From: a virus
Taxonomy: Duplodnaviria > Caudoviricetes
Length of the DNA: 26,397 nucleotides
Virus record (IMG/VR): IMGVR_UViG_3300033067_000794
Span: 1-26,397 of that record
Strand: one strand, 5' to 3'
Below the pieces are notes generated by a model. It was not told the DNA's origin. It was given only the letters and a program-made list of their open reading frames with translations, and made no database searches. Position 1 is the first letter of the stretch. Every line of letters begins with the position of its first letter. The position numbers were made by a program, and so were the translations under genes. This document shows, one piece after another, positions 4,215-8,182 of the stretch.

Positions 4215-6221
4215 TTATGGGCCGGGAACTATGTAATTGGAGATTATACCGACCGGCTGTTTCACCAATTCATAAGCCCCGGATACGGCATTTATGCGTA
4301 GTATGTAGGGAACGTAGGTTTCAGCGGTACCGTCAAAAGCGGCGCACCTAACGAATACTACGTCTTTTACAGAAGCGTAGGTATTTCCCCTCATTACCTC
4401 CATCATGGCTAACTTTAGTGAGGTATCCCAGTTAGTATTTGACGACAGCATCGGCAGCCCTATTACGTCAGGAACTGCGATGGGGCTTCTGTGTAGGGTA
4501 GACGACCCTAATGAGCTTCCAAGAACAGGGGTTATAGCGGTGTTCACTCCGTTTGCGTATAGCACCGCGGAAGCCACATCCGTAACGGTAGACCCCAGGA
4601 CGGGGAGGTACGGGGCGAACAGTACGATATCCGCTAAATAATCGGCATAGGCTATGGTGTGGTACCCTATTTGTACCCCTGTCCCACCTGGATCTGAAAA
4701 TGTAGTGGTCGGAACTATAGTAAAAGAATCAGCCACTAAATCCAAGGTTCCTGGATCCGTAATGTCGCCTTTTACAGTAAGCGTTTTCGCCGTTAGGTCA
4801 GAGGTGAAATCGGCTCCGCTTATGAAATCCAAATGGCTCATCGTGAAGCCGACTCTATGTGAAGTAGCGGAGGCCATCTGGCAGCGAAATCCGGCGGTTA
4901 TCCTGTCTGCCGGAAAAGGATTAGCAAGTGTCGCTGAAGAAGATAGTAAGTCTATGGTTGCTAGTGTAATCGGGGTTCCTACATTCAGCCCCCCATCGTA
5001 CACAAGCCACCGTCGAATAACTAATTTTATCGAGTCGATAGGTGCCGTAGTACTGTGATCCGTAGTGGCCGTCCAAAACATGGCCACATATAGGAAATTG
5101 GTGTCTGGAGAAAACTCCATCCATATAATAGCCGCTCGTCCGCCGATTCCTTGGACTTCGTCTATCAAGGCGCCGGATTCTACTATTAAAGTTCCGCAAA
5201 GGGAGTGCGATACAACAGCGCCTGTTGACATTAGCACATCCTCTGTTACCGTCGGAGCGGATAAATGCGACAGCCCTACCCGTATCCCTGTGGTGGTTTT
5301 GCGCCCGTAACCTGCGTTATTTCCGGATCTCCCTACGTCTTGTGGGGCCGTAGATACGGCGCTAAGTATCTTTGTAGCTTCCGGGCGGCAAGCTGCTATG
5401 TAGGGTCCGTCCGTGGACGCAGTGTTGGTCACTGCCCCCGTAGCGGCTTGCGTCAACGCAGACGGGAACGTATAAAAGATATTTCCTATGTACACCCCAA
5501 GTGCTAAAGGGGGCGGGTTACTGGTTCCGCTAGCTACCCCCCTGTATTTATGGTGCGGGACAAAGTTATCGTACCGAGAGTCTCCGGGCGGTAAAACCGC
5601 CGAGTGCGCGGTGGCGTCTTTAAAAGCTCGCATAGAGGCGTTTACGATCAGGCCATTCACTCCTACCCAAACATTGTTTACCGGCATATCTGCGAGCCCT
5701 CGGCCGCCGTAAGCATCCGAGAATTCTAAACTGTATACCCCGCCGGAAAACGTACTTAGTTTTACCGCTTTGTCTACGGTAGATCGGGTGAATTGATTAG
5801 ACCCTCTTGTTCCTACCGCGTATGAGGACGACGGATCCGTGAAAAGGACAGATAGAAAATTATTTACGCTGCTAGACAGCACAACATCCCAAGCGTCGTG
5901 AGTTCCGAAATCGTATGCGGGGTCGTCCGGTATTTGAAACGCTACCGGGCCTATGTAAACTATTTCGTTTGCGACGACCGCAGATATAAAAATCCTATTG
6001 GGCCGAGTGTCTATCCGTATTCTTACCCCGGCTATCGGGGCGAAAGTGGCCGATAGGGGGCCTAGAGAATTTTGAAGCATGAACCGAAGCTGGGATTTCG
6101 CGTACCCAAGCCAAGTGACTGCGGCCGCTTGATCTCCTTCGAACAGGGTTGCGGTGGCTAAGGAGTCTTGCCAGGGGCGGGTTTCTCTAATCATGCTGCT
6201 AAGTATATACTTTTCGGGCAT
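4215..6221 (-). CDS. Putative tail/virion structural protein (668 aa; start uncertain, alternative ATG 6194)
   Basis: Long ORF in the structural operon; short helical N-terminal segment (LFEGDQAAAVTWLGYAKSQL) then a beta-rich body; no clear SD at either ATG. Confidence 0.7.
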   Translation of the reverse strand: MPEKYILSSMIRETRPWQDSLATATLFEGDQAAAVTWLGYAKSQLRFMLQNSLGPLSATFAPIAGVRIRIDTRPNRIFISAVVANEIVYIGPVAFQIPDDPAYDFGTHDAWDVVLSSSVNNFLSVLFTDPSSSYAVGTRGSNQFTRSTVDKAVKLSTFSGGVYSLEFSDAYGGRGLADMPVNNVWVGVNGLIVNASMRAFKDATAHSAVLPPGDSRYDNFVPHHKYRGVASGTSNPPPLALGVYIGNIFYTFPSALTQAATGAVTNTASTDGPYIAACRPEATKILSAVSTAPQDVGRSGNNAGYGRKTTTGIRVGLSHLSAPTVTEDVLMSTGAVVSHSLCGTLIVESGALIDEVQGIGGRAAIIWMEFSPDTNFLYVAMFWTATTDHSTTAPIDSIKLVIRRWLVYDGGLNVGTPITLATIDLLSSSATLANPFPADRITAGFRCQMASATSHRVGFTMSHLDFISGADFTSDLTAKTLTVKGDITDPGTLDLVADSFTIVPTTTFSDPGGTGVQIGYHTIAYADYLADIVLFAPYLPVLGSTVTDVASAVLYANGVNTAITPVLGSSLGSSTLHRSPIAVPDVIGLPMLSSNTNWDTSLKLAMMEVMRGNTYASVKDVVFVRCAAFDGTAETYVPYILRINAVSGAYELVKQPVGIISNYIVPGP

Positions 6222-6225
6222 TAAA

Positions 6226-6234
6226 TGCTATACT
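6226..6234 (+). promoter_or_regulatory. Extended -10 promoter (TGCTATACT) for leader RNA and endonuclease
   Basis: TGn-TATACT; predicted start near 6241 coincides with the 5' end of the structured RNA. Confidence 0.6.
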
Positions 6235-6240
6235 AGAAGC

Positions 6241-6321
6241 CCTGTGGATAGCTCGACGGAGCGAAAGTACCCTTCAGTAAGGTATTTCCACGGATTCTCT
6301 TACTGATGAACTTAACTGGAG
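6241..6321 (+). ncRNA. Structured leader RNA (three-way junction) with loop complementary to two downstream sites; C4/CI-like architecture
   Basis: P1 CTGTGGA 6242-6248 / TCCACGG 6287-6293; P2 GCTC-GACG-GAGC 6251-6262; P3 AGTACC 6266-6271 / GGTATT 6281-6286 with loop CTTCAGTAA; targets CTTACTGA 6299-6306 and CTTAACTGGAG 6311-6321. Confidence 0.65.
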
Positions 6322-6328
6322 TTTACCC

Positions 6329-8182
6329 TTGAATACCGAAGACTTCGTAGAAAAGGCGCGGCTAATACATGCCGACAAATACCAATACCCGACTACTAAA
6401 TACATTAGATATGCGGGTAAAGTAGAAATATTGTGCCCGTCCCACGGGATCTTTTTGCAGCGTCCGGCGGACCATTTATACGGCAAAGGGTGCAAGAAAT
6501 GCGCCTCCCCGCTACACGACTCTACGGAAGGATTCATATCGAAAGCCATAGCCGTTCATGGCGACAAATATGATTATTCTGGAGCCGTTTACACCGGAAG
6601 CTCAAACAAAGTTAAAATCATTTGCGGTGAGCACGGGAGCTTTGAACAATCCGCTAGAGCACATCTCAAAGGGAAAGGGTGCCGCGCGTGTTCTATACGG
6701 GCGGCGGAAGGCCGACTAGACTCTAAAGAAGATTTTATCCGTAAAGCCATCGAAACCCACGGAGACCTATACTCTTATAACACTGTGGTGTATGCGACCT
6801 CAAAGAAAGAAGTTACTATCGTGTGTAGAAAACACGGAGCGTTTTCACAGAAACCTAACGCCCATATACAAGGGCACGGGTGCCCTAAGTGCTCTATTAT
6901 AAAGGTAGCCGACGGTAGAAGAACAGAGGTATCCTCGTATTTAGCTAAGGCGCGTGAATTTCATAATGATAAATACGACTATTCCAAAGTTAATTATGTG
7001 AACTCCGGGTCTAAAATAGAAATCGGGTGCCCTGAGCATGGGTACTTTCTGCAGTCAGCTTCACACCACCTATCCCACGGGTGTCGTAAATGCTCCTCAG
7101 ATAAGATCGGTAAAGCTCTGCTAGACACAAAAGAGGATTTCGTTAAGAAAGCTAAAGAGGTACACGGAGACTTGTATTCCTACGAGTATGTTAGGTACTC
7201 TAAATCGAACGTTAAAGTCAGTATAGAGTGCAAAAAACACGGCGTGTTTGAACAAGCCCCGTACAGCCACCTGAATGGGCAAGGGTGCAAACATTGCGCC
7301 AACGTCGGCCCTTCTAAAAATGAAATAGAAATGTCCGATTTTCTATCTTCATTGACCGCCGTAGTCCGCTCCGATAGAATCGCCATAGCGCCGCTAGAGA
7401 TAGATTGTCTGCTCCCAGATAGGAAAACGGGGGTAGAGTTTTGCGGGCTATATTTCCACTCAGCTAAATTTAGGGAGAGGGATTACCATATAAAAAAACT
7501 AACCGCCGCTAACGCTAAAGGGCTGCGCTTAGTGCAAGTATTTGAAGACGAATGGCTAGCTAAAAAAGATATCGTAAAATCCGTACTTAAGAATATAGTG
7601 TCCGCCCCATCCACCGTGCTATACGCTAGGAAAATGGAATTACGAGAGGTATCAAAAGAAGAGGCTAAGAATTTTTTAGACCTATACCACCTTCAGGGGC
7701 ACACCAAAGCCGAAATTAGACTAGGCCTGTATTCAGGGGAGGAACTAGCTATGTTGGCTACTTTTTCAGTCAATAGGCAAATCTTAGGTGATCTTAAACC
7801 CGGATGGGCCGAGTTAGTTCGGCTGTGCTCCGTACCCGGTACTAGAGTAGTCGGGGGATTCGCCAAACTTCTAAAGCGCTTCGTCTCGTGCTACAGCCCT
7901 TCCGGTATAAAAACGTACTGCGACTTGAGGTATTTTACCGGGAAGGGTTACGAGGCCGTTGGCTTTTCCAAAAGTCATGTCTCGGCGCCGGGATATTCTT
8001 ATGTGAAGAACCAAAGACGGTACTCTAGGTACGCCTATCAAAAGCACCTGTTGAAAAAGAAACTAGAGGTGTTCGACCCCAGCCTATCCGAGGAAGAGAA
8101 CATGACGGCTAATAATTTCCACCGGATATACGATTGCGGTAACATAGTGTACGTCATGGATTTAAGCCGTCGTAGCCAGTGA
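6329..8182 (+). CDS. Free-standing Hef-like homing endonuclease: 5 zinc-ribbon (DUF723-like) repeats + Vsr-like/PD-(D/E)xK-type nuclease + C-terminal GNAT-like domain
   Basis: Five units F..KA...H.DKY.Y....Y......V.I.C..HG.F.Q....HL...GC..C; EIDCLLP....GVEFCGLYFHS...YH..K...GLRLVQVFEDEW; C-terminal YARK..FLD.YHLQG..ELVRLC..VVGGFAKLL..TYCDLRY..G.GY...GF..RIYDCG. Antisense to the operon; GGAG 7 nt before a TTG start. Confidence 0.82.
   Translation: MNTEDFVEKARLIHADKYQYPTTKYIRYAGKVEILCPSHGIFLQRPADHLYGKGCKKCASPLHDSTEGFISKAIAVHGDKYDYSGAVYTGSSNKVKIICGEHGSFEQSARAHLKGKGCRACSIRAAEGRLDSKEDFIRKAIETHGDLYSYNTVVYATSKKEVTIVCRKHGAFSQKPNAHIQGHGCPKCSIIKVADGRRTEVSSYLAKAREFHNDKYDYSKVNYVNSGSKIEIGCPEHGYFLQSASHHLSHGCRKCSSDKIGKALLDTKEDFVKKAKEVHGDLYSYEYVRYSKSNVKVSIECKKHGVFEQAPYSHLNGQGCKHCANVGPSKNEIEMSDFLSSLTAVVRSDRIAIAPLEIDCLLPDRKTGVEFCGLYFHSAKFRERDYHIKKLTAANAKGLRLVQVFEDEWLAKKDIVKSVLKNIVSAPSTVLYARKMELREVSKEEAKNFLDLYHLQGHTKAEIRLGLYSGEELAMLATFSVNRQILGDLKPGWAELVRLCSVPGTRVVGGFAKLLKRFVSCYSPSGIKTYCDLRYFTGKGYEAVGFSKSHVSAPGYSYVKNQRRYSRYAYQKHLLKKKLEVFDPSLSEEENMTANNFHRIYDCGNIVYVMDLSRRSQ

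Follow-up and report, generated by a model that had tools for sequence, protein, structure and literature searches.

A divergent int-alpA-like leader ahead of a phage homing-type endonuclease gene: a candidate two-copy brake on translation

Organization of the locus

The window, i.e., the whole stretch of 26,397 nucleotides that we analyzed from a virus of the Caudoviricetes (IMG/VR record IMGVR_UViG_3300033067_000794), contains a homing-type endonuclease gene preceded by a promoter-like element and a structured leader. The features are listed here, with the basis for each in brackets.

6195-8161, no strand assigned: optional cassette of promoter, leader and nuclease gene, ends approximate (comparison of occupied and empty loci)
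6226-6234, plus strand: extended -10 promoter-like element, TGCTATACT (sequence)
6242-6293, plus strand: three-way junction with an int-alpA-like core (fold and Rfam RF02996 match)
6242-6248/6287-6293, plus strand: stem P1 (computed fold)
6251-6254/6259-6262, plus strand: stem P2 (computed fold)
6255-6258, plus strand: P2 tetraloop GACG, predicted self-kissing (dimerisation) loop (family comparison, literature analogy)
6266-6271/6281-6286, plus strand: stem P3 (computed fold)
6272-6280, plus strand: 9-base P3 loop, the specificity loop, with complementarity to both of the sites that follow (sequence, fold)
6299-6306, plus strand: site 1, an unpaired stretch that matches the P3 loop, with a predicted role in a pseudoknot or as a parking site (sequence, duplex energy)
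6307-6313/6319-6325, loop 6314-6318, plus strand: P4 hairpin (computed fold; outside the 71-position Rfam model)
6315-6321, plus strand: site 2, a further stretch matching the P3 loop, which includes the Shine-Dalgarno GGAG at 6318-6321 (sequence, duplex energy)
6329-8182, plus strand: free-standing homing-type endonuclease, 617 aa, TTG start (6329-6331), repeated zinc-binding domains (PHROG/Pfam matches)

The 617-aa protein matches phrog_559 (E 9e-155, labelled HNH endonuclease) and phrog_3339 (E 1e-87, homing endonuclease) and carries a Pfam DUF4379 match, which agrees with an earlier reading, made from the sequence alone, that a homing-type endonuclease lies downstream of the leader. The cassette is oriented antisense to the two minus-strand genes that flank it, which are neighbors in the structural region. 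No related viral loci were found with the nuclease as the query, and the related loci described here were found via the flanking gene, which encodes 633 aa. Among nine such phage loci, the flanking genes abut in five, a leader and a nuclease gene lie between them in two, and two end too early. The two occupied loci, L242 and L245, have a promoter-like element, leader and nuclease gene at the same site, with ATG (L242) and GTG (L245) at the position equivalent to the TTG start codon; neither an 18-base pattern taken from the core of the leader nor the Rfam model matched in two complete empty-site phages. By this comparison the nuclease gene occupies a site that is empty in relatives, as a free-standing homing endonuclease cassette would, with cleavage and toxicity as predictions.

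Transcription is likely to start near 6241, judging from the extended -10, an element that is absent from the output of a two-hexamer promoter scan. Directly upstream of homologous leaders, a -10 with at least 5/6 matches is present at 14 of 27 nuclease-linked loci and at 2 of 25 other loci; at shifted control positions it is found in 0-1 of 24. When the leader is folded from 6241 (91 bases; -22.2 kcal/mol, z -0.91), both the minimum-energy and the centroid structures consist of the three-way junction plus a hairpin at 6307-6325. The junction folded alone has a z of -2.15, and the minimum-energy structure of a fold started at 6226 differs from the junction. The fold from 6241 bears out the sequence-only reading, which had placed a three-way junction just after an extended -10, and every string named in that reading was verified at every position. 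In addition, P1, P2 and P3 of L242 each show compensatory changes relative to the window leader. Alignment of 32 leaders by MAFFT succeeded for the junction and failed for the 3' part, and pair counts were therefore restricted to P2, where one pair has both sides changed in 13 of 32 alignment rows; all other tests used per-sequence, cross-locus nulls.

Identity of the leader

The leader matches the Rfam model of int-alpA (RF02996) at 6241-6309 with 31.6 bits (E 0.0054), over all model positions 1-71. Since this score falls below the gathering cut-off of 35.8, we file the leader as a divergent relative of int-alpA and not as a member. Its closest relatives also score below this cut-off (L242, 26.8 bits; L245, 19 bits), and an own-genome Rfam search returned no int-alpA match. 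The same three-way junction, with UA and GAAA linkers, is present across the whole int-alpA model, to which the leader aligns at full length; the window copy differs in its setting, since it lies ahead of a nuclease gene and not of an integrase gene or an AlpA region. The 18-base core is present in at least 120 viral loci (about 310 estimated) and in at least 120 genome loci (about 520 estimated), the latter mostly from Pseudomonadota, with some from Bacillota, Planctomycetota and others. Among the 20 core-sharing viral homologs tested, 18 pass the int-alpA cut-off, with 38-66 bits. The sequence-only reading had allowed for an RNA new in itself, an idea that is not supported, given the full-length, sub-threshold match in the window and the 18 of 20 homologs above the cut-off.

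RF02996 is typed in Rfam as "Gene; sRNA", and its model stops at site 1, so that P4 and site 2 lie outside it. We take int-alpA to come from the survey of Weinberg et al. published in 2017. The main text of PMC5737381 does not contain the string "alpA", and our literature search found neither a functional account of int-alpA or RF02996 nor a description of P4, site 2 or a palindromic loop, some of which may be described in the supplement of PMC5737381, which lay outside the search.

The sequence-only reading also drew a parallel to the P1 C4 and P4 CI RNAs. Comparison with Rfam gave no C4, c4-2 or IsrK match at E<=5, and the only matches in the window at that threshold were int-alpA and a weak CRISPR repeat; the C4 model does match elsewhere, at locus L034. 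We therefore reject membership of the C4, CI or IsrK families. Three further candidates were rejected. A guanidine-II riboswitch is not supported, as the leader has a single GACG hairpin instead of a tandem ACGR pair and gives no Rfam match. A hammerhead ribozyme is likewise not supported, since CUGAUGA (6303-6309) is missing in L242 and L245 and there is no Rfam match. A CsrA-type site, with the consensus ANGGA, was also dismissed, as GGGG stands at that place in many members. Using BLAST against annotated phages, the leader returned chance-level pieces only, and for two homologs a search of E. coli genomes found nothing close to a full match.

The P3 loop and its two target sites

The sequence TCAGTAAG at 6274-6281 and the bases at 6299-6306 (site 1) are exact reverse complements of each other, and 6272-6278 pairs with 6315-6321 (site 2) with one G-U; both pairings, including that with the Shine-Dalgarno, had been pointed out in the earlier reading and hold at their coordinates. 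Because G6281 is a base of the P3 stem, the P3 loop proper gives site 1 only seven pairs. L242 and L245 have exactly the same P3 loop as the window. Both relatives keep the seven bases of site 2, and what they have in common at site 1 is a five-base core; a contig from run X3 carries a fourth version of the leader, in which both sites are present and site 2 is kept. Loop duplex energies favor site 2 over site 1 in all three leaders (-7.7 v -6.8 kcal/mol in the window, -8.8 v -4.4 in L242 and -7.7 v -4.6 in L245).

When the 106 bases are shuffled, 4.3% of the shuffles contain an 8-base reverse-complement pair, 5.1% a loop-specific 8-mer and 38% a 7-mer match allowing G-U; of 526 tiles cut from the window, 26 contain an 8-base pair of this kind. 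Pairings at one locus alone are thus weak evidence, and with chance rates of 4-5% and 38% the support for them is comparative. We removed redundant, short-tailed and long-loop rows before counting, which left 130 non-redundant relatives and 98 loci with two strict sites; 2 of 121 and 18 of 241 matches had not been parsed as a junction. Among the 130 relatives, a 5-mer of the loop is matched twice downstream in 57, against a permuted mean of 3.7. A strict Watson-Crick match to a loop 5-mer is found twice in the 42 nt that follow at 36 of 71 viral non-redundant loci and at 24 of 70 held-out bacterial ones, whereas 2000 permutations of loops against the tails of other loci gave means of 2.2 (viral) and 3.1 (bacterial) and maxima of 8 and 10. 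The covariation between loop and target that the sequence-only reading had suggested looking for in homologs is therefore present, with two mutually exclusive sites, the second of which lies over the Shine-Dalgarno. The Rfam consensus of int-alpA likewise has a loop and tail that are complementary to each other (site 1).

The positions of the two sites are constrained. Among 82 two-site homologs, 61 have the first base of site 1 at 14-17 nt from the junction, a narrow distance that offsets P1 length (rho -0.44), as would fit the needs of a cis pseudoknot; the distance from the end of site 2 to the start codon is 5-9 nt in 50 of 75. The region of site 2 pairs better with the anti-SD (67 against 18). 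Family-wide, the mean energy is -6.2 kcal/mol for site 1 v -5.5 for site 2, with site 1 the stronger at 48 loci, site 2 at 24 and ties at 26.

In the window, site 2 has four bases in the loop of P4 and three in its 3' arm, and P4 itself is weak (about -3.7 kcal/mol). A hairpin of at least four pairs encloses site 2 at 76 of the 98 loci with two strict sites; swapping 3' arms gave a mean of 34 and a maximum of 41 (60 permutations), and the same test at site 1, run as a control, was positive at 19 of 98. These P4 hairpins have 60 different top stems, and the core of the site lies fully in the loop in 59 of 76. On this comparison, site 2 is a predicted loop target displayed over the ribosome-binding site. 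The sequence-only reading had passed over the P4 hairpin, whose loop displays site 2.

The main idea of that reading was a switch or timer acting in cis. The P3 loop would first occupy site 1 and then move to site 2 by strand displacement, and each message would give a short burst of translation with no second copy involved. Both sites share the loop register at 82 of 98 loci, a stronger site 1 tends to go with a stronger site 2 (rho 0.49), and the sites show a toehold-like stagger, with site 1 lying further toward the 3' end of the loop (39 v 4) and site 2 toward its 5' end (26 v 15). A purely cis mechanism nevertheless leaves unexplained the self-complementarity of every non-GACG P2 loop, set out below, as well as the lack of a cis partner for GACG, and we consider it decidedly unlikely.

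Self-complementarity of the P2 loop

The first core pattern had GACG fixed and was uninformative on the P2 loop; its interior was then freed, after which GACG was found in 35 of 45 members. We also scanned the whole viral collection with GACG excluded by design, which gave 92 distinct matches, with membership judged from P1, P3 and the two sites only, i.e., without the P2 interior. A central 4-base palindrome is present in 13 of the 14 members identified in this way vs 15 of the 78 non-members (Fisher p=1.9e-7), a count in which at least one likely true member (L751) was parsed, and kept, as a non-member. In the pooled free-loop scans, with lineages collapsed by identity and not by tree, 16 of 18 non-GACG lineages have a palindrome, drawn from seven different palindromes (mean of 20000 shuffles 5.4, maximum 13). 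The remaining two self-pair via G-U, so that all 18 are self-complementary when G-U is allowed (shuffle mean 8.5, maximum 16). The palindrome is not a mere extension of the stem, because a mismatch or bulge sets it off in 13 of 18, and 14 of the 18 lineages pass the int-alpA cut-off.

GACG itself has no enriched partner in cis, its complement being nearby in 17 of 133, the second lowest of 12 permutations. According to passages in PMC7357161 and PMC5874298, GACG tetraloops homodimerise through two C-G pairs in MoMuSV and MuLV. The P2 loop of the window is GACG, and the kissing known for GACG is that of retroviral hairpins with a different stem context. A P2 loop that stays self-complementary despite sequence change is best read, from this family comparison, as a putative contact between two copies. 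The self-complementary loop, pointing to pairing between copies, had not been seen in the earlier reading.

Two other readings of these loops were weighed. The junction may bind a small molecule or protein that flips the P3 loop between its sites, as in a riboswitch; the junction letters are conserved in the Rfam consensus, CGACGG recalls the ACGR kissing loops of guanidine-II, and those loops kiss via the same C-G pairs, as a passage in PMC7357161 describes. We regard a ligand as highly improbable, since the hairpin is single and not one of a tandem pair, the guanidine-II model is unmatched, unrelated palindromes replace the GACG loop and the downstream genes share no metabolic theme. The element may instead act as DNA, e.g., as an operator, a recombination site or a single-strand hairpin site, with the palindromes as protein-binding sites. 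It does lie at the edge of a mobile cassette, and the 2017 survey warns, in a part of PMC5737381, that ssDNA motifs can resemble RNA motifs. A role as DNA seems scarcely credible to us nonetheless: stems and self-pairing depend on G-U, orientation and distance to the start codons are fixed, and palindromes change in sequence while keeping their symmetry.

Proposed mechanism

Taken together, comparison of sequences among relatives shows the junction, both target sites, P4, the self-complementarity of the P2 loop and the cassette of promoter, leader and nuclease gene. We tentatively propose, with confidence a little short of even, that the leader (6242-6331) is a two-copy, concentration-sensing brake on translation of the endonuclease. 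On a lone message, the P3 loop would be parked in cis on site 1 of the same molecule, and the weak P4 would let some initiation through. As RNA rises, two leaders would kiss through the GACG loops of P2, and the P3 loop of the partner would then bind site 2 in trans, locking the ribosome-binding site, so that translation would drop as RNA accumulates. We infer each of these parts: dimerisation, the use of site 1 in cis and of site 2 in trans, and repression. The partner could be another complete message or a trimmed junction from which site 1 is missing, the latter presumably binding more effectively. Because site 1 is only slightly stronger family-wide, a swap between full-length messages would give little repression in the absence of such a short form. 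An intrinsic terminator after P1 is not general, with at least five U in 8 nt in 43 of 130 relatives and none in L245. In all 7 records in which the core pattern matched, it matched only once, and the kissing partner would therefore be another transcript of the same locus; no multi-copy genome, in which loop orthogonality might be seen, was present among 10 records.

Downstream proteins across the family belong to nuclease families in 28 of 58 cases (one more weakly) and to replication families in 7, and the motif is thus not specific to nuclease genes. Nucleases and replication proteins are both dose-sensitive types, which we counted in favor of the brake. Counting against it, in the window lineage the P3 loop pairs more strongly with site 2 than with site 1, and the default fold of L242 is a lock in cis, with a long helix that connects P3, including the loop, with the ribosome-binding site.

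These two observations fit a monomer that is already off, and thus the same dimer with the opposite sign, in which the P3 loop of the lone message would lock site 2 and dimerisation would shift the loops to site 1 and free the ribosome-binding site. Translation would then occur only at high copy number, i.e., late in infection, when homing can occur. Such a switch would explain the P2 palindromes equally well and has precedents, in that passages in PMC2988022 describe T4-type homing endonucleases restrained until late infection by hairpins over the ribosome-binding site, and a passage in PMC4825925 describes IsrK, a short self-derived RNA that activates its own message. On the other side, site 1 is family-wide the stronger more often (48 v 24), is transcribed first and is spaced as expected of a cis pseudoknot, and display in a hairpin loop, typical of a kissing target, is seen for site 2 and not for site 1. 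We judge the opposite sign to be unlikely.

Both pairings may also repress, with site 1 hiding a ribosome standby stretch, site 2 locking the hairpin, and dimerisation serving only to stabilize the RNA, in which case expression would depend on an outside trigger, e.g., ribosomes from upstream or a late transcript in antisense. An A/U-rich linker precedes site 1, site 1 resembles a Shine-Dalgarno in many members, and the cassette is antisense to structural genes here, all of which would suit this arrangement. We nevertheless hold it to be very unlikely, since constant damping needs merely a plain hairpin, and a trigger common to stand-alone cassettes and operon-internal copies (as reflected in the promoter counts, 14/27 nuclease-linked v 2/25 other loci) is hard to name.

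Relation to known systems and significance

Several systems resemble the proposed two-copy brake in part. The C4 RNAs of P1 and P7, CI of P4 and IsrK of Gifsy-1 are likewise multi-stem RNAs derived from phage leaders that pair with their own transcript, and for IsrK a passage in PMC4825925 has a short form acting in trans on the long form. C4, CI and IsrK use separate complementary regions upstream and downstream, whereas here one specificity loop has two like targets, and a self-complementary loop is present in addition; we saw no upstream target for the leader, unlike in these RNAs. T4-type homing endonucleases (I-TevI-III, segB, mobE) have a hairpin over the Shine-Dalgarno, as here, according to passages in PMC2988022. 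In those genes, a late promoter located within the hairpin allows it to be bypassed, whereas the hairpin described here is weak, comes after a junction and has a covarying target as its loop.

Retroviral dimer-linkage loops (the GACG loops of MuLV and MoMuSV, and palindromic initiation loops) also lie in a 5' leader whose monomer-dimer state is tied to translation, as described in parts of PMC7357161, PMC5874298 and PMC516450. They are of unrelated origin and have a packaging role, while the leaders described here belong to messages of phages and bacterial mobile elements, with predicted control of the ribosome-binding site, so that the likeness is one of working only. In the IncI repZ pseudoknot with its Inc antisense RNA, a cis pseudoknot is opposed to an intermolecular contact (passages in PMC8383071), as proposed here; the competitor there is a counter-transcript, whereas here it would be a sense copy, with no leader peptide seen and no Rfam match. 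The leader belongs to none of these, i.e., IsrK/CI, the T4-type hairpins, the repZ pseudoknot or the retroviral dimer loops, and our literature search did not find translation control by a homodimerising bacterial or phage leader.

The leader is a genuine element and a variant of an orphan motif already catalogued. The proposed mechanism has comparative evidence behind it and, should dimers be confirmed, would be a new one among messages of phages and bacteria. In general terms, we give an even chance to the proposal that phages and mobile elements use int-alpA-type leaders as RNA dosage sensors that need no protein, in which a retrovirus-like kissing homodimer would let the second loop of the partner shut (or open) the ribosome-binding site; the sequences of the two loops would serve as a code keeping the control of one element apart from that of another. 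If this is true, an orphan RNA motif of several bacterial groups and hundreds of viral contigs would gain a concrete and cheaply testable mechanism, which would explain how the output of selfish nuclease and replication genes is buffered against copy number without a protein, and which would offer synthetic biology a compact, re-codable feedback part.

Predicted extended pairing of the leader in the closest relatives

In the window and in L242 and L245, the closest related phage loci with the leader and a nuclease gene at the equivalent insertion site, the helix between the P3 loop and site 2 is predicted to be extendable into the P3 5′ strand, so as to reach the start codon.

Window 6266-6280 with 6315-6328; L242 8553-8643, minus strand: predicted extended loop-site 2 helix
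L245 6877-7416, minus strand: 179-aa product, either the remnant of a nuclease or another, small one, downstream of the leader at the equivalent insertion site

Predicted pairing energies are -19.4 kcal/mol in L242, -11.8 kcal/mol in L245 and -10.5 kcal/mol in the window, and the extended helix could possibly represent an irreversible off state in this lineage. The L245 leader in front of the 179-aa product, at the same insertion site, is nearly identical.

Genes and frames beside the leader

Window 6192-6207, minus strand (L245 counterpart, 7535-7549): -10-like hexamer region before the minus-strand gene beside the cassette
Window 6154-6306, plus strand: 50-aa frame ending at a TGA inside site 1
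Window 6011-6047, plus strand: weak, single-copy hit (E 0.26) on a CRISPR repeat model

The true start of the minus-strand gene is probably 6194 rather than 6221, because the relatives' versions begin at that point. A -10-like hexamer lies 7 nt upstream of this ATG in the window (6 nt in L245), and there is no Shine-Dalgarno, which together suggest that the cassette brings a leaderless restart promoter for this gene, arranged back to back with that of the nuclease. In L242 a Shine-Dalgarno-like run is present instead.

The 50-aa frame is probably not a leader peptide, since it opens upstream of the nuclease promoter and its TGA stop is not present in L242 or L245. The CRISPR-repeat-like match, a single copy within a gene on the opposite strand, is probably due to chance.

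Other loci carrying the leader core

Five loci (L003, L069, L074, L111 and L115) form a subfamily preceding a primase/polymerase-like gene, in which it is apparently the start codon, not the Shine-Dalgarno, that site 2 overlaps.

L034 2681-2771, minus strand: C4 antisense RNA (68 bits)
L034 1458-1526, minus strand: int-alpA RNA

This single element holds both a true C4 antisense RNA and an int-alpA RNA, 1.2 kb apart. Of 5426 E. coli genomes, 35 have a partial match to L012 (1250-1450) with the motif placed after a tyrosine integrase, and these might supply a cultured carrier.
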